Positions 3,733 to 23,989 of a stretch of 32,000 nt of DNA are shown here, piece by piece. Made by a program: the position numbers and the translations under genes. Each line of letters starts with the position of its first letter. Within the stretch, counting starts at the first letter, position 1. The DNA comes from Promethearchaeota archaeon (GTDB lineage: Archaea; Asgardarchaeota; Lokiarchaeia; Sigyniarchaeales; Promethearchaeaceae): NCBI GenBank assembly GCA_016933055.1, contig JAFGBS010000014.1, forward strand, positions 150,001-182,000, read 5' to 3'. Below the pieces are notes generated by a model. It ran no database searches, was not told where the DNA came from, and saw only the letters and a list, made by a program, of their open reading frames with translations.

Positions 3733-6654
3733 TTGAACCAGTCTCTCACACCCCAACTTAATGACGAAACCATCGATCTGATAGAATCCTATATAGCAAA
3801 CCGAAATTATAATGATGTAATTGACATTTGTATCCAAATCGTTCAAGAAAACATCAAAACTCCCAATAGAGAACAATTGTATGAAATAATTGAAAAAATT
3901 ACCCTCATTTGTGATAAAACTCCTTTTATTGTAGACACCCTTGTCCCGTATCTGGGAGAGTTTTTACAAGATTTGGATGAATGGCTAAGAACGGAATCCC
4001 TAATAATTACGGAAAGAATTAGTAAATATCGCCCCAACGTGTTAATTGAATTCATCCCCCTAATCACCAATCGATTACAAGATGAAGATCAAAACAACCG
4101 TGAGATTGCTCTGAACATAATTGGAAATTTAAGTTTAAACCTACATCTTGATCGAGAGAATTTATTTATCTTTATCCTGAATATGATGCAAGATAAATCA
4201 TGGAAAATACGAATACGAGCAATCCAAATCAGTGAACAACTCCTAAAGAAAGAAAAAATACCAAATAAGAATCTTTTTCAAAAATATGTAGAAGGGATAT
4301 CCAAATTAGTAGGAGATGAGGATGAGGAAGTCCAAGGTACTGCAATAGAAACACTCAAAAATATCAGTTTCTTGTTGGATTCCGAATCCTTTCTACAGAT
4401 TACATCCCAGTTAGTAAATTCGTCAATTTGGCAAATAAGTGAGAAAGGAATTTGGTTGGTGGGGGAAGTAGGAGCAGATCAATATTCCAATGTATCATTA
4501 ATAGCCCCCAGATTACCTAATCTCCTAAATAATCCTAATTTAATGATCCAAACAAAAGTAATTGATGCATTGGTAAAAATCGGTCGTGTACATACAGAAA
4601 AAATACTGGAGATCATTTTTAACAATGTGCACACTAAAGAAAAGGAGATTTATGACGGTTTATTCGATATATTTTTGTATTTAGGAATAGAACGACCCGA
4701 TGCAGTTCTCCAGCGAGCCTTTGAACATTTAGAAGACCCAGATCGTTCAATTCGGATGTTTATTTCAGATGTTCTAAACAAATTCAAAGAGGAAGCTGTG
4801 GGCAAAATCGAGGAACAAGTAGCGTCACTATTTGCACGTTTACGCACTACTGATTGGCGACAGCGGCAACATATTGTGGAAATTCTAGGCTCACTCAATG
4901 GTGTTATAAAGGTCAACAGTATTGCAGTGTGGTCTTATCTCACCCTTAAATCGATCTCAGAGAATGAGGTCGATCCTGAGGTTAAGGACACCATCCATTC
5001 AGCATTAGAACGGATACAGAGTTCCATTGATGATATAGAGATAATTATTAGAGAAGTTGAAGTACATCAAAACTTCTTTTATCGTGAAATATTGGAATTA
5101 CAGAATTTACCAAAACAATTACGCGACAATATGCTCATCATTATCGAAAAAAACGAATTTCGGGAAGCATTATTGATTCTGGAACGAGAAATAAATAAAG
5201 CTATCAAAAAAATCGAATCATTTGGGGATCGGTTAGATGAATATGAATACAAAAGATTAGCTGTGGATTTAATAGAAGATTGGTCATATACTCGATTGGA
5301 TTTATTGGAGCAAATAGGAGACATAAAAAATTATATTAAAGAGAGTGTAGAAAATGCAAAACAGCGATATATTACCCAACTGTACGAGAAAATCCAACGA
5401 GTAAAAGCACGAATTGATGTATTGAAGTCTGAAATGGAAGACATCATCAATTTAAATTCCCAGCTAAAACATCTCATCCAAATAGGTGAAGAGGAACGTG
5501 CTAAGAAAAAATTGGAACACCTTGCATACATCCGAGATAAGATTTTTCGTTTAGAAGCAGAAATAGGACAAATTTGGATTGAAAATCTTGATTTTAAAGA
5601 AGAACTCAAAGATATTACTCTATATTGGGTTAATGCAAAAATTGAAGCCCAACAATTATTGTATTCCATAAGTTACAATCTGAAAAGTATCCATACCAGT
5701 TTTAAAGATAGTAAAAAACAAAAAAATGCACTAAAAAAGGAAATTTCCTTTGAACTATTATTAAATCAATATCAAAACTTAATTCTTCAGTCTAGCAGTA
5801 ACGTCCGTGATCAGTTCGAGCGGTTTTCCATTATCACATCCCCTGTTGTGGACGAAATTAAAAAAGGGAGTTATGATAATGCGACAGATTTGCTAAAATT
5901 AACCATTTCCCAAACAGTCACTAGTATTCAAGATTTTGATAAGGAAATCATAAAAATTTATGATCAATTAGATAAGATGGAAGGGGATTTTGAAAAATCT
6001 AAAATGATTCGGTCATATATGGAAGATTGGATTCAGATTAAAGATTCATTGATTGAACGTAGTAATGAATTTTTCCAGCAGACATCTCAAGACATCTTTT
6101 TCCATCGTATAATAGATCTACAAAAATACATCAATCCTATCCCTATTGATCTCTTAAGCAAACATTTGAAAACGGAATATACTGAATCTCAATTACTTGA
6201 AAAATTGTTTAAACTCATTGAAAATGGAACTTTACAAGGTAAGATCCGAGATAATAAGTTATACTTACCCGAAAAACATCCTGAATACGAAAATGTATTA
6301 CAGATTTCCAAAAAAATCGAAACTTTAGGTAATTTCGTTCATTTTAAAATACGGTTGCAAAATACAACACGTCACTTCTTGCAAAATCTATCAATATTAT
6401 TTTCTTGGCCGGTATTTATGGAACTCCAAGAAGAACGTAGTAAACCTAACTGGATGGAGATTAAGGAACTTCAAGCGGAAGAAATCCAAATTTTTAATTG
6501 GGTATTGAAATATCGTCACGATAACATGATTAAATCCTCTGAACGATTGGGAGTAACTTCAAGAATAGGAGAATTAAAAGTTATTATACGCTATACCAAT
6601 TTCTTCGGAGTTCAAAAGGAAATTCGAAAGGAACTTGAGGTGTTCATCCCATAA
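3733..6654 (+). CDS. HEAT/ARM alpha-solenoid protein with helical middle, winged-helix (PCI-like) segment and C-terminal beta-sandwich
   Basis: HEAT-like units in aa ~40-430 (e.g. LQDEDQNNREIALNIIGNL, MQDKSWKIRIRAIQI, VGDEDEEVQGTAIETL, LEDPDRSIRMFISDVL, LRTTDWRQRQHIVEILGSL). A coiled/helical middle follows, then INPIPIDLLSKHL..LFKLIENGTLQGKIRDNKLYL (PCI-like winged helix) and a beta-strand-rich C-terminus (VHFKIRLQNTT..NLSILF..GELKVIIRYTN). TTG start with GAGG upstream. Confidence 0.75.
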   Translation: MNQSLTPQLNDETIDLIESYIANRNYNDVIDICIQIVQENIKTPNREQLYEIIEKITLICDKTPFIVDTLVPYLGEFLQDLDEWLRTESLIITERISKYRPNVLIEFIPLITNRLQDEDQNNREIALNIIGNLSLNLHLDRENLFIFILNMMQDKSWKIRIRAIQISEQLLKKEKIPNKNLFQKYVEGISKLVGDEDEEVQGTAIETLKNISFLLDSESFLQITSQLVNSSIWQISEKGIWLVGEVGADQYSNVSLIAPRLPNLLNNPNLMIQTKVIDALVKIGRVHTEKILEIIFNNVHTKEKEIYDGLFDIFLYLGIERPDAVLQRAFEHLEDPDRSIRMFISDVLNKFKEEAVGKIEEQVASLFARLRTTDWRQRQHIVEILGSLNGVIKVNSIAVWSYLTLKSISENEVDPEVKDTIHSALERIQSSIDDIEIIIREVEVHQNFFYREILELQNLPKQLRDNMLIIIEKNEFREALLILEREINKAIKKIESFGDRLDEYEYKRLAVDLIEDWSYTRLDLLEQIGDIKNYIKESVENAKQRYITQLYEKIQRVKARIDVLKSEMEDIINLNSQLKHLIQIGEEERAKKKLEHLAYIRDKIFRLEAEIGQIWIENLDFKEELKDITLYWVNAKIEAQQLLYSISYNLKSIHTSFKDSKKQKNALKKEISFELLLNQYQNLILQSSSNVRDQFERFSIITSPVVDEIKKGSYDNATDLLKLTISQTVTSIQDFDKEIIKIYDQLDKMEGDFEKSKMIRSYMEDWIQIKDSLIERSNEFFQQTSQDIFFHRIIDLQKYINPIPIDLLSKHLKTEYTESQLLEKLFKLIENGTLQGKIRDNKLYLPEKHPEYENVLQISKKIETLGNFVHFKIRLQNTTRHFLQNLSILFSWPVFMELQEERSKPNWMEIKELQAEEIQIFNWVLKYRHDNMIKSSERLGVTSRIGELKVIIRYTNFFGVQKEIRKELEVFIP

Positions 6655-6716: not shown

Positions 6717-7754
6717 ATGAATCCAGAATACCGATTAACAGCTAAAACGCAAATTCATGGATGATCATGTAAAGTATCAAAAGGTGCTCTCGAACGGATT
6801 TTAATGGGATCCGGGTTAGACTATTCTGCAGAAGATTGTGCCGTAAAACCGATTGGGAATAAGATATTAGCCACAAACGTGGATATTTTTACTCCCATTC
6901 ATGATGACCCTATTGTTCAAGGAGAAATCACCGCTTGTAACGCTACAAATGACCTATTTGCCATGAATGTGATTGATATCATTATGTATCTGAGTTTCCT
7001 CGGAGTCCCGGTGGATCAACCAGAAGAGATCACTCAAGGGTTAATTAAAGGTCAAAGAAATTTTCTGAAACAATTTGGCGCCGATATAAATGGAGGTCAT
7101 ACAATTATCAATCCTTGGCCGATATCGGGGGGAATTGTAGTAGGAATCGCGGATAAAAAGGATCTGATACCAAAACAGTTACGAACTACAGCCGATACAG
7201 GAGATTTGTTCATCACCAAACCGATCGGAATACAAGCAGCTATGGCAATATATCGTATACAAAAAGATGAGGACAATGTCCTAAATGAATTATTCCCAAA
7301 TGTGAAAAAAGTAACACTCGATAAAATGGTAGATACTGCGGTAGAAGTAATGCGGAAATCCAACCATGAGGTGGCTCACATAATTCGAAAATATCATCTC
7401 AGAAATGGCATTGCCAGTATGACCGATATAACAGGATTTGGTTTGAAACAACACATAGAAGAAATAGTCCAAGGTACCCAATTCGACATCTCGATAAATA
7501 CATTACCAATTATCGTGGGTACGGATAAAATATCTGATGGTTTAGGTTATGATCTCATGGGTGGATGTGCTGCAGAAACTGCGGGTCCAATGTTATTATG
7601 CATAGATCCTAATGAAATTGAACATGATGAAATCTTACGAGTGTTTCACAAGGAAAAAGTCCCGATTTGGAGTATCGGACAATATTTCAAAGGAAATGGA
7701 AAAGTGACCATCTCGCAAAATCCTAAGATCATTCAAGTAGAAAAAATAAATTAG
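6717..7754 (+). CDS. selD: Selenide, water dikinase (selenophosphate synthetase), selenoprotein with Sec at codon 16
   Basis: The ORF track starts at 6804, but the frame extends to ATG 6717: MNPEYRLTAKTQIHG-TGA-SCKVSKGALERILM. This places UGA in the catalytic (U/C)-x-C-K motif. Downstream SelD motifs: EDCAV, TNVDIF, NATNDLFAM, GGHT, MTDITGFGL and ETAG. A SECIS-like hairpin follows the stop. Confidence 0.95.
6762..6764 (+). other. In-frame UGA recoded as selenocysteine
   Basis: TGA at 6762-6764 is in frame with the selD body and sits exactly at the conserved catalytic Cys/Sec position (HG-U-SCK). Confidence 0.92.
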
Positions 7755-10040: not shown

Positions 10041-10550
10041 CTAATCCATCGCGTATTTTTTTGTGTAATCACGAGCTTGCTTATTGAATCGTTCAGGAGA
10101 CCTCAATGCTTGCTCTCCCGCTTCATGATTCAATGGATCACCAGGATTGTAAAAAGGAGGTTCCATATGAATCATTGCTCGAAGAGCTTCAATAATATTT
10201 GTCAAAGTTTTCGCCGGAGTCCATCCGCTTGCACCAGTGGTCTGATCTACCTTTCCAACAAGATCTGGATTAATGAGATCTAAGCAAATATTCAATTTTC
10301 CAGGGGGGATGGATGGATCAATGTTTGGATGCCACAAAAGTGTATGACAATAAGCATAAGGGGGACTGAAAGGATAATTTTCAGGTAATTTTATCTCAAA
10401 AATGAATTTACCCCCCTTATATGGTGTATTAGGTAGTCCTTTGATCGTCAATCGAATATGATCAACTGACATACCCCATGGTTCAATTAAAACTTCTTTA
10501 TTAGAATTAAAAGCTTCTACAGATTCTTGATAATCAGTTTCTTCGCGCAT
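10041..10550 (-). CDS. Ubiquitin-conjugating enzyme E2 (UBC fold)
   Basis: GLPNTPYKGGKF, LPENYPFSPP, WHPNI, ICLDL (catalytic Cys89), GWTPA, NPGDPLNHEAG and the C-terminal ARDYTKKYA all follow the UBC consensus. Confidence 0.95.
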   Translation of the reverse strand: MREETDYQESVEAFNSNKEVLIEPWGMSVDHIRLTIKGLPNTPYKGGKFIFEIKLPENYPFSPPYAYCHTLLWHPNIDPSIPPGKLNICLDLINPDLVGKVDQTTGASGWTPAKTLTNIIEALRAMIHMEPPFYNPGDPLNHEAGEQALRSPERFNKQARDYTKKYAMD

Positions 10551-10721: not shown

Positions 10722-11657
10722 ATGGCAAATGGAGTTCTCATATTCAAAATTGTAGGCAACACACGCCCAGAGATCATCGCAAAATATAATGACGATGGAT
10801 TTGATAGCAATCTTGCTCGTAAAATCGCAAACAAACATACGATTTATGGAGAGGAAGCCCACCCAAAAGATATGTTATCGTATCGCACTGACGAAAGTAA
10901 ATACTATTCTATATATATAACTCAAAATGAGAAGAACGAGAACGTATTTCTAGTCTTTATTTTAGATTCCAATGAATCTATTGCGCCGTTTTCTATCATG
11001 CTTAGCGAGTTACGAGAGTTTATAATACTGAGCTTAAATAAATCAGAATCTGTGCTGAAAGATGCGATAAAACATATTTTAGAAGAGCGAAATGATTTAA
11101 TACAAGATGTAAGAGATGTTAAGCGTCTGCAAGAAAGAATCGTAACTAAAGCAAATGAGTTATTAGATGAGAAAAATTTTGAAAAAACTCAAGAAATGAT
11201 TAAAAGAGCAAATGAAATACCTCCAAAAATCGCTAACTTGTGTAAAAAAGCAGATCAAGCCTTTCATGATCAAAAAAACTACCGTCAAGCTCAAAGATAT
11301 TATAAAGAAGCCAGCAATTTAGCCAAGAAAATAAAACAAAAGTCAATCTCTAAACTATTGGAACAAAAAGCAAAACGAGCAGAAGAGATCCCCCAATTTG
11401 CTAAAAATTGGGCAATTACTTATGATCAAATAGTTAAACCCCTTCGTAAGATTGAGAAAAGGGATCACGATTATTACCTTAAACCCATTAAGTTAATTAA
11501 TCGAGCCATAGAAATTTCCGATTTTCTAGAAGAGGATAAAACCATAGAGGATTTGCAGAAATTGGCTGATTATCTAGAACGTGCAAATGATCTAATGGAA
11601 GAAGTAGATGCAATTGATGAAAAAATCAAAGAAGTATTGATAAAAATTAAGAGATAA
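10722..11657 (+). CDS. Putative longin/uDENN-like domain fused to helical (TPR/MIT-like) region
   Basis: The N-terminal ~125 aa has the beta-beta-alpha-beta-beta-beta-alpha pattern of longin domains (GVLIFKIV..PEIIAKY..LARKIANKH..LSYRTD..YYSIYI..VFLVFIL..helix). The rest is amphipathic helices with TPR-like pairs (KKADQAFHDQKNYRQAQRYYKEASNLAKKI). The fold call is inference. Confidence 0.6.
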   Translation: MANGVLIFKIVGNTRPEIIAKYNDDGFDSNLARKIANKHTIYGEEAHPKDMLSYRTDESKYYSIYITQNEKNENVFLVFILDSNESIAPFSIMLSELREFIILSLNKSESVLKDAIKHILEERNDLIQDVRDVKRLQERIVTKANELLDEKNFEKTQEMIKRANEIPPKIANLCKKADQAFHDQKNYRQAQRYYKEASNLAKKIKQKSISKLLEQKAKRAEEIPQFAKNWAITYDQIVKPLRKIEKRDHDYYLKPIKLINRAIEISDFLEEDKTIEDLQKLADYLERANDLMEEVDAIDEKIKEVLIKIKR

Positions 11658-11662
11658 AAGAG

Positions 11663-14600
11663 TTATTTCTCAAACAGAATTTTTTCTTCTTCAAAAACTG
11701 GGATGATTTGTAATAAACTCCATGCACTATTGATCATAGAACTATAATTGATAGCCCTCGCATCAATATATAAGCTCAATAATTTTACTGGAAAGGTTTC
11801 TTTTAACACCTTTTCTGCAAAACCAATTCTTCCGAGGAAGTTATATAAGTATGATTTAATAGGATCGATTGTTACTGATGATTTCAGTAAACTCAAGGCG
11901 CCCAATAATACTAGCACACTTACAGTATCATAATCTCGCTTAGCGGTTTGGTTAATTGCTAAATCAAAATACTCGGATGCAGCTTTCTGATATTCTTTAT
12001 TCTTTAGAGCCTCCAATAGATTGCGATATACTAGCCGTTTTAATGCATTTCGCTTTCTGAATGAATCTTCCAGGCGTTCTTTATCCTCTGCTTTTCTTTT
12101 ATTTAAAATCGAAAGTTGTTGTTTCTGTAACACCATAGATTCAGTTTCTTCTTGTTTTTTCTCAAATTGGATTTTATTTATTTCAGTTCTCTTACTTGGG
12201 CTAATTTCATTAAGTAATAACCCTCGCTCAACATCTAATAATGGAAGGTATTTGTAAAATGCTTCTAGGATCAAATCTACTTTTTCTTCGTCTTGAAGTT
12301 GGTGAGAGACTAATAAAGCTTCGAGAAGTTTATATTCTGGTTTATTTTGGATGATATCTCGGGGCAATGGGACCTCCATAATGGTTTTTTCAAGATTACG
12401 TTTTGCTTCCAATCTTTTTCCCACTTTAAGTAAGCAGATTACCCCCATCATTAAACTGATTGGGAAAAATTCCTCGTGATCGTTTTTTATTAGGAGATCT
12501 ATACTATTGAAATATTCTCTTGCTGCATCCGTATAATTTTGGGTTCTGATATTATTATTAGCGTCTAACCAATATTTATCAAGAAGTGTTCCTCGCTTTA
12601 TCGACGAGATTTCCTTGGTTTTCAGTTTTTCAATGTGTTTATTGATTATGACCTCACTTATATGGGAAGGATCGAATTGATCTGGCTGGACTTTCTCTCC
12701 TTCTCTTTTATCAGGTTTGACTATTTCATGCAATGCATTTTTCTCTTCCCGAAACAGTGCTAAATTTTCAAATAATTTAATCGCTTGCAGATGAATTGAC
12801 TGATCTGGATAATCCAACAAGGTAATGATGAAATCAACCACTTGGGAAACAAAACCTTGAGTTCTATTATATTTTTTGCGTAAAGGAATTAATCCCTCTT
12901 TATTTTTTAATATGAAAAATAGGATTGTGATGACCGCAAGATCAATCTCAGCTAAATCCATTTTTCTTTGACTGAGTAATGATCCCATTTGTTTTTCATA
13001 GCCTTCTAGTGCTTTATCATAATTCTTATTATCCAATAGGTTCAAGAATTCTTGGTAATTTAATCTTTTATATCCTTGACGACGAGATAATGTGTCTTGT
13101 TGTCTTAACAATTCTTCTTGTGCCATCTGTCTGAGACGAGAGAGTTTTTCTACCATCATATGAATCTCTTCATCTCTCATTTTTTCCGCTTTTCTCTCCT
13201 TGTTAATTTCCTCCTCAATAGCATCAATCTTTTTGTGGATTCTCTTTTGAATGCCTTTATTTTTGATTTTACTATTTATTAAAGAAGTTTCACTTAATTC
13301 TTTTAAAATATCTTTCAAGAAAGCCTCATCAAGCCCGAGTTTACTACCTGTTGAATTTGTCAATTCTTTTTCTTTCAGTTTGTTTTCCATTTGTGAAAGA
13401 TGGCGTTGAGCAATTTCCTCTAATATAAAATCATAATCCAGAGGATCCCTCTCTGATAACCTTTGATATACCATTTCTGCTTGTTTAAGCAAATCCAGAA
13501 CAGTTTGTGCTTCCTCCAAACCCGAAGAAGTAGCGAGTAGCTTTTTTGCTCTACCAGTGAGAAATTTTACATATAATCTTTCCAGATCCTTAGTTTCATC
13601 ATATAATAAATGATTTCGATATAATTTTGCGTAATTTTCTAATATCTGGTTAACTTTGTCTAATGATTCCTCACTTTCTGTTAAAATTTCAATTTTATTT
13701 TGAATTTTACCGATGCTACGCTTTAGATAATCCTCCCGTGTTTCATTTCGTAGATTTATCATTTCGTGAAGAAATGGTAAAAACATTCCTGAATCTAAAT
13801 ATAAATCCAGTAAATGAATCAATAGTTCGTTATTGATCTTAGCATGTCCTACATTTTTGAACCAATCTGCACGTTTTTTAATTTCAGAAGTTGCTTCTAA
13901 TATTTTATCCGCTTTTTTTAATTCCTCGATCTGTCTATATAATTTTTCATTAGCTTGGATAAATTCAGTTTTTTCTTTTTCTACATATTTCTTTAATACA
14001 GAAATAGCATTAGTGTAATGAGTTATTGCCGAATCAATACGATTTTTGCGATATTCTTCTTCAGCAGATTGTCGTAATTCTGTTAATTCTTTTTGAATAG
14101 GATATGACTGTACATAATTGATCAATTTATCCACAATCGAAAATTGGTTTTTGTTCAGAAATAGTATGGCAATACTGCGTATACTATCATCTACATCCTC
14201 TCGATCAATGTGGAAGGTCTCCCAAATGTTGAATAACTCTTCAAGAGTAAGATTTGCTGAATCAGGATCATTTTCCTTAATATATTGATTTAGTAAAATT
14301 CTGAGTACAATGACAATTTTCTCACCCAGTATTTTAATTTCATCGAACAACCCCATCCTTTGATACTTATCTATTGTAAAATACAATTGCCCTTTTACAA
14401 TATCATAACGTTTTTCTTCAATTAACCGATCCACTGCTCTTGCTATACCTGGAGTTAAGTCTTGCATTAATTCCTTTTGTTCTTTGAAGTCCAATTTCTC
14501 CATCAATTGGAACGCATTTTGAAATTCAGTTGAGGTAATCCACGTAGTTATTGCTAATTTTAGGGACTTCTCAGCTAGCTCTTCATCATTTAGTTCTATA

Positions 14601-15436
14601 GATGCGTATAAATATGCTTTCTCAAACTTTTCTGCTGCTGTGTGATATCTTTTCATATTGAACAGGCGGGATCCTTGATGAACAAGATTTTCTACATAGA
14701 TACGGACAAATTTCTCAGAATAAACACTAACTCCTTGTAACACAGTGGACGCTTTCAAATATTCTCCCGATTTATAATATAACCATGCAGCTTGTTCTGC
14801 ATTTATGAAATAATCTTGTTTTGAGAACTTTTTCTTCATGTTGGTTAAAATTTCAGCAAGATTCCCCGCATCCTCATATCGTTCATCTACAAGCAACCGA
14901 TTGATTTTTTCCATGAAAAAGGGAATTCTCATCCATGCAGTTTCTACGTTAATAGGGATATTTCCAGTTATCATTGCTTCCGAAAGACATTCTAATACTT
15001 CATAAAATGTATTTTTCGAATAAAAATCAAACACAAATGCCTCAATGAGATAATTTTCCCATATGTATTCTAACAGGAAGTTGGATGGAACATAAATTAA
15101 TCCGCTGCGAGTGTAGAACACCACAATAATAGGTATAGTTCGACCCAATTTCTGAATAATATCTATTATTAATTCGAATAACTCAAATTGTTGCACATCG
15201 TTAGGATCCAAGAAGTATAAAATGCCATCGGAAGTAGGAATAATACTGTCGAAATCAACTGTAGAACTTAATACAACATCAATATCAATAACAGCTTGAT
15301 CTGTTCCCACATTAACTCCTCTATTCCACCGGGAAATCTCATGATCCTTAAATTGGTGGTTCAATTTTCCTGTTTTTATCAATTGTAGACCAAGATTTGA
15401 ATCACCTAAACTCAGTACTTTGAAGATATACCTCAT
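11663..15436 (-). CDS. Large protein: degenerate small-GTPase-like N-terminal domain + TPR/alpha-solenoid + three C-terminal repeats
   Basis: The N-terminus YIFKVLSLGDSNLG mirrors Rab-type YxFKxxxxGDxxxG, and FDSIIPTSDGILYFLD and IPIIVVF follow small-GTPase strand order. The G1 Lys/Ser, G3 Gly and NKxD are absent. The remainder is helical with TPR-like units (AEQAAWLYYKSGEYLKA, LFNMKRYHTAAEKFEKA). Confidence 0.7.
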   Translation of the reverse strand: MRYIFKVLSLGDSNLGLQLIKTGKLNHQFKDHEISRWNRGVNVGTDQAVIDIDVVLSSTVDFDSIIPTSDGILYFLDPNDVQQFELFELIIDIIQKLGRTIPIIVVFYTRSGLIYVPSNFLLEYIWENYLIEAFVFDFYSKNTFYEVLECLSEAMITGNIPINVETAWMRIPFFMEKINRLLVDERYEDAGNLAEILTNMKKKFSKQDYFINAEQAAWLYYKSGEYLKASTVLQGVSVYSEKFVRIYVENLVHQGSRLFNMKRYHTAAEKFEKAYLYASIELNDEELAEKSLKLAITTWITSTEFQNAFQLMEKLDFKEQKELMQDLTPGIARAVDRLIEEKRYDIVKGQLYFTIDKYQRMGLFDEIKILGEKIVIVLRILLNQYIKENDPDSANLTLEELFNIWETFHIDREDVDDSIRSIAILFLNKNQFSIVDKLINYVQSYPIQKELTELRQSAEEEYRKNRIDSAITHYTNAISVLKKYVEKEKTEFIQANEKLYRQIEELKKADKILEATSEIKKRADWFKNVGHAKINNELLIHLLDLYLDSGMFLPFLHEMINLRNETREDYLKRSIGKIQNKIEILTESEESLDKVNQILENYAKLYRNHLLYDETKDLERLYVKFLTGRAKKLLATSSGLEEAQTVLDLLKQAEMVYQRLSERDPLDYDFILEEIAQRHLSQMENKLKEKELTNSTGSKLGLDEAFLKDILKELSETSLINSKIKNKGIQKRIHKKIDAIEEEINKERKAEKMRDEEIHMMVEKLSRLRQMAQEELLRQQDTLSRRQGYKRLNYQEFLNLLDNKNYDKALEGYEKQMGSLLSQRKMDLAEIDLAVITILFFILKNKEGLIPLRKKYNRTQGFVSQVVDFIITLLDYPDQSIHLQAIKLFENLALFREEKNALHEIVKPDKREGEKVQPDQFDPSHISEVIINKHIEKLKTKEISSIKRGTLLDKYWLDANNNIRTQNYTDAAREYFNSIDLLIKNDHEEFFPISLMMGVICLLKVGKRLEAKRNLEKTIMEVPLPRDIIQNKPEYKLLEALLVSHQLQDEEKVDLILEAFYKYLPLLDVERGLLLNEISPSKRTEINKIQFEKKQEETESMVLQKQQLSILNKRKAEDKERLEDSFRKRNALKRLVYRNLLEALKNKEYQKAASEYFDLAINQTAKRDYDTVSVLVLLGALSLLKSSVTIDPIKSYLYNFLGRIGFAEKVLKETFPVKLLSLYIDARAINYSSMINSAWSLLQIIPVFEEEKILFEK
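11666..13090 (-). repeat. Three tandem ~125-135 aa protein-level repeats (aa ~783-905, ~944-1078, ~1125-1257)
   Basis: Matching starts KRLNYQEFLNLLDNKNYDKALEGY / DKYWLDANNNIRTQNYTDAAREY / KRLVYRNLLEALKNKEYQKAASEY. Matching hydrophobic helices end in FILK / CLLK / SLLK, and matching ends are LALFREEK / LPLLDVER / IPVFEEEK. Confidence 0.75.
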
Positions 15437-23002: not shown

Positions 23003-23185
23003 TTAAACATGAATGATGTGCTATTTTAATTTGAAGATTTATTTCATTCATCGAATTTCATTTTTTCCGTCTTATATGACGTTTTTCATGATTTTTTCTA
23101 TAATCTAAAATCACAATTTTTTTTACATAATTAGTTAAATAATTATCAACCCCTTAACTTAATTTAACGGGTGAGTGAGAAAACA

Positions 23186-23989
23186 ATGGAAAAACAATTT
23201 TTAGAACAATCTAGAATTAGTGATAAATATCTGAAGAAGTTCAATCTCGTGATGTTTTTTTTGCACTTCGTTCAAGCATTGACCATGCTTTTACTCGGAC
23301 TCTTCGTAGCACAGATAAGAGATTTTGAATTGCCCATTACAACGACCTATCTACAATTCATTCCAGGACCAGACATTTTAGTACCGAACTATCAAACTAT
23401 TGGATCAATTCCTATAGGACCAATTGTATCTTCTTTCTTGTTCCTATCAGCATTGGCACACTTCTTGATAGCAGTCCCCTTCAACAAATTCTACAATAAA
23501 TCTTTAGATAAACATGTGAACTATTTCCGATGGTTTGAATACGCTTTAAGTTCTTCAGTAATGATCGTACTGATTGCGATGTTCTTTGGTGTTTATGATC
23601 TATCAAGCTTGGTTCTGATTTTTGGCGCAAATGCAACAATGAACTTGCTGGGATTAATGATGGAGATTCATAATCAAACAACCAAGAAGACCAGTTGGAT
23701 TGCGTTCAACATCGGTTGGGTAGTTGGATTACTTCCATGGGCAGTAATAATACTTTATCTACTTGGAAATAATGTATCCTTTAGTCAAGTCCCCTGGTTT
23801 GTATGGGCTATCTTTTTCAGCTACGGTGTCTTGTTCTTTACATTCCCGATCAATATGTTCTTACAATATAAGAAAGTAGGAAAGTTTCAAGATTACCGTT
23901 TTGGAGAAAGAGGTTATATCATCCTATCACTCGTTGCAAAAACCCTTCTAGCATGGTTAGTTTTTGCTGGAGTTTTACAACCTTCTTAA
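23186..23989 (+). CDS. Heliorhodopsin
   Basis: Seven hydrophobic helices with LHFVQ (His), SALAHF (His), NYFRWFEYALSSSVM (Arg and counterion Glu) and ERGYIILSLVAKT (retinal Lys at 23939-23941). ATG 23186 has GGTGAG upstream; the ORF track starts at GTG 23171. Confidence 0.93.
   Translation: MEKQFLEQSRISDKYLKKFNLVMFFLHFVQALTMLLLGLFVAQIRDFELPITTTYLQFIPGPDILVPNYQTIGSIPIGPIVSSFLFLSALAHFLIAVPFNKFYNKSLDKHVNYFRWFEYALSSSVMIVLIAMFFGVYDLSSLVLIFGANATMNLLGLMMEIHNQTTKKTSWIAFNIGWVVGLLPWAVIILYLLGNNVSFSQVPWFVWAIFFSYGVLFFTFPINMFLQYKKVGKFQDYRFGERGYIILSLVAKTLLAWLVFAGVLQPS

Follow-up and report, generated by a model that had tools for sequence, protein, structure and literature searches.

We describe a Lokiarchaeia gene whose product combines, in a single chain, a HEAT-repeat solenoid, a three-repeat rod, a PCI-type winged helix and an ear-like β-sandwich. 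The protein is probably a soluble, non-enzymatic scaffold, assembled by domain shuffling and specific to one Lokiarchaeia order, whose solenoid holds a client, whose rod acts as a spacer and whose C-terminal PCI and GAE domains dock into a complex. The gene (P0002; positions 3733..6654, + strand) lies in a window of 32,000 nucleotides from a Promethearchaeota archaeon (contig JAFGBS010000014.1, positions 150,001 to 182,000). It is an open reading frame (ORF) with a TTG start and a TAA stop that encodes 973 amino acids (aa), here called the HEAT-rod-PCI-ear protein. Asgard archaea are the closest microbial relatives of complex cells, and this protein joins parts resembling eukaryotic vesicle-coat and proteasome-lid scaffolds. 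A literature search found no paper on the full chain. Throughout, "the order" denotes the single Lokiarchaeia order to which the source genome belongs, as surveyed in GTDB genomes.

A sequence-only reading of this DNA had proposed four parts in one chain, and the ORF, Pfam matches and an AlphaFold (AF2) model computed from the family alignment (mean predicted local distance difference test score, pLDDT, 84) place all four where that reading had put them. In the model, about 11 helical hairpins (aa 11–431) are followed by nine long helices (435–797), a small α/β domain (798–844) and a β-sandwich (856–972). The start position agrees with that of close relatives. Fifteen database relatives of similar size, full-length or nearly so, align end to end at 27–80% identity, family members range from 890 to 1031 aa, and 107 loci in GTDB genomes encode the protein. 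No transmembrane stretch was detected in it (maximal 19-residue hydropathy 1.44), and Pfam searches of the query and family members matched no enzyme family. The trunk (3763..5025, + strand) consists of HEAT repeats of ~37–41 aa (Pfam HEAT_2, E = 3e-12; HEAT, 7e-11), in keeping with the ~430 aa of such repeats that had been claimed. HEAT_PBS was not among the Pfam families at E<=0.001, and prokaryotic HEAT_PBS clusters occur among the Atlas shape neighbours of the protein. ESM Atlas feature searches with the whole protein, the rod or the C-terminus gave no usable matches.

The ~370-aa helical segment was located correctly by the sequence-only reading, but its description as coiled needs correction: it is a rod (5035..6102, + strand) of three tandem homologous repeats (aa ~435–545, 548–660 and 668–790). 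The repeats are ~115 aa each and carry one conserved Trp apiece (W517, W632 and W766); compared with one another by hhalign, they score at P 91–95% (E 7e-8 to 9e-7), whereas reversed controls reach P<=1.5%. In the AF2 model each repeat has three helices, the third being continuous with the first of the next repeat. Spectrin repeats are tandem three-helix bundles of ~106 aa in which helix C continues into the next helix A and a Trp is conserved. The rod thus appears to resemble spectrin repeats in helix pattern and Trp, and "spectrin-like" stays a tentative description because neither spectrin nor any other family matches it. Searches of the rod against Pfam families and PDB sequences gave nothing above coiled-coil noise, and no other protein of the source genome scored above the reversed control; a comparison with the helical repeats of a 1500-aa PCI protein (C10:14218) was weak (P 17%). 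The rod and the winged helix are conserved, folded parts (pLDDT mostly 70–90), with no unstructured hinge between trunk and ear.

The winged helix (aa ~791–848; 6103..6276, + strand) had been predicted at aa ~790–845, where the model indeed contains an α/β domain, and the motif quoted for it, LFKLIENGTLQGKIRD, corresponds to aa 826–841. Among Pfam families PCI comes first: 15 of 23 members match it, the best at 1.3e-6, and the query does so at 0.0015. The related models UFL1, Paf67 and DDRGK rank next, and the modeled topology is that described for PCI. A profile of the domain matches eIF3E and CSN2 weakly (E 0.04–0.06). We therefore regard the PCI label as fair. The winged helix does not appear in the fold-match lists of the C-terminal part, since sandwich matches filled these. 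The terminal β-sandwich, likewise found where it had been anticipated (aa ~855–973), is an immunoglobulin (Ig) domain resembling the GAE/ear type (aa 855–972; 6295..6648, + strand). The chain terminates with it, so that a platform subdomain is absent, an arrangement compatible with the gamma-adaptin type only. Its best structural match is the GAE domain of BBS9; no PDB sequence matched its profile at E<0.3.

The PCI and GAE domains form a unit that sequence comparison shows to be homologous to its counterpart in other Loki proteins. An hhalign alignment of ~155 columns (P 97%, E 3e-11) links it to a ~790-aa Zn-finger/multi-winged-helix/GAE/platform protein, encoded in 28 of 32 genomes of the order as well as in the source genome. 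There, the 784-aa paralog, near-universal in the order (G000:C17:628197-630548, + strand; L102:6198-8549), contains Zn fingers, several UFL1/DDRGK-like winged helices, PCI, GAE and platform domains and a helical bundle. The unit also aligns (P 94%) with a ~335-aa GAE-platform-Zn-ribbon protein present in 50 of 61 Lokiarchaeia, and it is found behind LRR and other N-termini. The PCI-GAE-platform-Zn-ribbon paralog of the source genome (G000:C28:54552-55700, + strand; L103:5553-6700) is interrupted by an in-frame TAA after codon 295, beyond which the frame runs 87 codons on to a CxxC..CxxC end; it is either a pseudogene or an assembly error. Seven of the 76 genomes of the order encode, alongside the long form, a ~600-aa paralog that shares its solenoid and PCI+GAE unit (P 99.6% and 98.8%) but has no rod; the parts therefore move as modules. 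The gene for this short paralog usually stands beside one for a LuxC-like acyl-CoA reductase (L081–L089).

The phyletic survey across Asgard genomes called for by the sequence-only reading confines the gene to the order. The rod is the best family marker: 73 of the 76 genomes of the order have exactly one copy, which argues for a core role, and the 225 other Asgard genomes searched yielded one weak match (7e-6). Other Lokiarchaeia orders contain only weak partial matches in proteins of other sizes. Among these are rod-repeat matches (E 1e-7 to 5e-6) in proteins of 1338 and 570 aa (G301:C315:4460-5779 and G305:C412:596-1009). Record titles among the loci suggested a presence in Hod-, Hermod-, Thor- and Odinarchaeota, which we reject, as their synteny matches that at Loki loci and the gene was confined to the order in the GTDB survey. 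We do not count as orthologs the HEAT-only proteins of 620–630 aa that another Asgard family encodes (G065, G089). Ca. Harpocratesius repetitus, whose genome is closed, encodes a family member. The cultured Lokiarchaeia belong to the order, so this core gene could serve as a specific bait in experiments on whether coat- or PCI-like complexes are assembled in Asgard cells.

Building on this anatomy, modularity and distribution, we infer partners and a pathway as follows. The HEAT groove would hold a client protein, and the rod would set it at a distance, roughly 10–15 nm if its repeats are stacked as those of spectrin are. Through the PCI+GAE end the protein would dock into a larger assembly, other Loki proteins with PCI/GAE domains being its most likely binding partners, by analogy with the PCI winged helices that mediate PCI:PCI contact in the horseshoe of the proteasome lid, COP9 signalosome (CSN) and eIF3 (PMC1274264) and with the GAE domains that heterodimerise in the BBSome (PMC7018513). 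The likeliest setting would be a protein-sorting network linked to ubiquitin and the ESCRT (endosomal sorting) complexes, where Makarova et al. 2024 (10.1101/2024.02.06.579148) place multidomain proteins of Asgard archaea that carry an adaptin appendage together with Ig and HTH/PCI domains. Those proteins share PCI and Ig-like appendage modules, shuffled among Asgard proteins, with the one described here; the latter differs in possessing HEAT repeats and the rod, in lacking Vps28-C, the steadiness box and the platform, and in being near-universal in the order rather than patchy.

Several observations weigh against this scheme. No partner or client emerged from any result, and the ESCRT link comes from the description of similar proteins by Makarova et al. 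The likeness of the rod to spectrin consists of helix pattern and Trp, with no spectrin family matched. The neighbouring genes, selD and metabolic genes, lend no support to a scaffold role. The GAE domain has the lowest mean column identity (32%, versus 39% for the rod and 42% for the winged helix), which fits a loose docking role and not a conserved peptide pocket. When the PCI+GAE unit was modeled as a complex with the corresponding regions of the two GAE-platform paralogs, the score was 0.00, which gives no verdict either way.

In a bolder and rather unlikely extension, the scaffold and the two conserved GAE-platform paralogs would make up an archaeal complex of adaptor/coat-like character, with PCI winged helices and paired GAE domains holding it together. 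The protein would then be the first Asgard chain fusing an adaptin-related trunk to an ear, and either a present-day parallel to the transition from separate domains to adaptor protein (AP), BBSome and PCI scaffolds or a relic of it. The BBSome subunits BBS1/2/7/9 offer a parallel in the BBS9-GAE match and in the occurrence of paralogs with and without a platform, as in BBS9 versus BBS1; the Loki protein, however, has no beta-propeller and carries a PCI winged helix ahead of its GAE domain.

Kinship with coat adaptors was the other half of the earlier proposal of a scaffold combining coat-adaptor-like and PCI-like modules; the PCI label stood up in Pfam and in topology, whereas sequence and fold matches do not favour a specifically adaptin-like trunk. 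The large subunits of AP complexes (gamma-, alpha-, beta- and delta-adaptin) and beta/gamma-COP share with our protein an N-terminal HEAT trunk, a C-terminal, ear-like Ig domain and a size of about 100 kDa. That it is a true archaeal relative of the AP/COPI large subunits, of the gamma type with trunk and GAE-only ear, in which rod and PCI replace the hinge and the role is that of a membrane coat, is unlikely. The part order agrees, and the existence of a long and a short paralog is reminiscent of two large subunits. The family profile matches AP-1 beta (3e-20) and, in one stretch of ~300 aa, AP-3 delta (1e-17), but unrelated HEAT proteins score comparably (CAND1, 5e-19; SF3B1 and PP2A-A, 1e-14), and the AP-1 beta alignment is off register (chain 349–517 on profile 20–195). 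Three of 23 family members match Pfam Adaptin_N (best 1.6e-12), and the gene is the best Adaptin_N match in its own genome (1.4e-7, under the cut-off); the match to the trunk (30.5 bits against a cut-off of 37) covers profile positions 65–224 only and is not collinear over ~520 aa. Superposition on adaptins is poor (root-mean-square deviation, rmsd, 12–14 Å), ranking below INTS4. The gene is found in one order and not in the other Asgard genomes searched, and the short paralog is restricted to the 7 of 76 genomes. The trunk is also shorter (~430 aa) than in AP and COP subunits, the platform is missing, and a folded rod and PCI winged helix stand in place of an unstructured hinge. Searches for longin sigma/mu partners (PF01217, PF00928) found none in the 91%-complete source genome, where the controls matched nowhere either.

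Eme et al. 2023 (PMC10307638) found all adaptor-complex domains in Asgard archaea, with Adaptin_N and Alpha_adaptinC2 not fused. Their Adaptin_N list includes a member of the present family (Lokiarchaeales BC2, SHMV01000052.1_14), and their Alpha_adaptinC2 list includes both paralog types that share its ear. In contrast to the eukaryotic signature proteins of that study, here an ear-like sandwich closes the same chain, behind the rod and PCI domain. The statement that trunk and ear are never fused thus needs qualifying. Since HEAT and ear can come together by shuffling, however, layout alone is no proof of adaptin ancestry. The layout is analogous to that of a cargo-adaptor large subunit, and we claim neither descent from, nor ancestry to, the AP/COPI large subunits. 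The protein looks like a local rearrangement of modules that are common in Asgard archaea, not a proven ancestor of coat or proteasome-lid scaffolds.

We also doubt that the protein is a subunit of an archaeal PCI/MPN-type, lid- or CSN-like complex, in which several PCI proteins, linked by their winged helices, would surround a JAMM isopeptidase. Eukaryotic PCI subunits end in a bundle helix, which is replaced here by the sandwich. In addition, their TPR-like repeats join the winged helix directly (PMC1274264), whereas our protein has HEAT repeats, set apart from the winged helix in the long form by the 360-aa rod. Besides the Pfam PCI match, the idea draws on the at least four PCI-type proteins of the source genome and on the short paralog, in which a winged helix follows a solenoid as in PCI subunits. 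Furthermore, the gene for the GAE-platform-Zn-ribbon paralog is arranged head to head with genes for a winged-helix protein and a JAMM/MPN+ isopeptidase at 25 of 30 loci in two families (L122–L151), and the window encodes an E2 enzyme 3.4 kb away. That synteny, however, belongs to a paralog that for the most part has no PCI domain; it may reflect nothing more than housekeeping gene order, and the E2 neighbour is not conserved. In the 1500-aa PCI protein (G000:C10:14218-18717, + strand; L104:5219-9718), long helical repeats occur together with a PCI-like winged helix, and two hydrophobic segments lie at the C-terminus; this protein may be a membrane anchor for PCI proteins.

The Integrator subunits INTS4 and INTS7 possess a C-terminal sandwich. 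It is improbable that our protein is a relative of these scaffolds or of symplekin (HEAT plus C-terminal sandwich, ~960 aa) that holds an RNA-processing nuclease. INTS4 is the top natural fold match of the trunk, and of similar length, but only the trunk superposes and the Z lead over other solenoids is small. Whole-chain comparison gives a template modeling (TM) score of 0.20–0.24 and an rmsd of 26–36 Å, and PCI and rod are absent from those proteins. The lactamase neighbour in the window has no beta-CASP match, and the loci of the other family lack it. The best 50 fold matches listed for the ear include no INTS4-type sandwich. Graseck et al. 2026 (10.64898/2026.10.28.762692) reported a cluster of the INTS4 solenoid with 57 mostly Lokiarchaeia proteins and warned of convergence; that cluster may be the present family.

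The only neighbour kept across the order is selD (selenophosphate synthetase; 6717..7754, + strand), the next downstream gene in 61 of 71 informative loci and in both main families, at distances of 33–561 bp (median about 160). The selD frame begins upstream of where the ORF finder placed its start. Within a G-U-x-C-K motif it has an in-frame TGA (6762–6764), read as selenocysteine, so the product is a selenoprotein. Despite this synteny and the selenium- and sulfur-transport genes inserted at the same spot in 5 loci, a nucleic acid-binding winged helix serving selenium metabolism, for example in control or recoding of selD, is very improbable, as the gaps allow separate promoters and the domain is only mildly basic and scores as PCI, not as a regulator. 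Many relatives have two tandem selD copies.

Further along the window are genes for the E2 ubiquitin-conjugating enzyme (10041–10550, − strand; Pfam 2e-25), a longin-like plus helical protein (10722–11657, + strand) and a TPR-rich protein of 1257 aa (11663–15436, − strand) whose N-terminus looks GTPase-like by eye. A conserved "trafficking neighbourhood" was rejected, since these three genes occur at none of 80 loci and at none of the own-family loci read. A heliorhodopsin gene (Pfam 2e-92) lies at 23171–23989 on the + strand.
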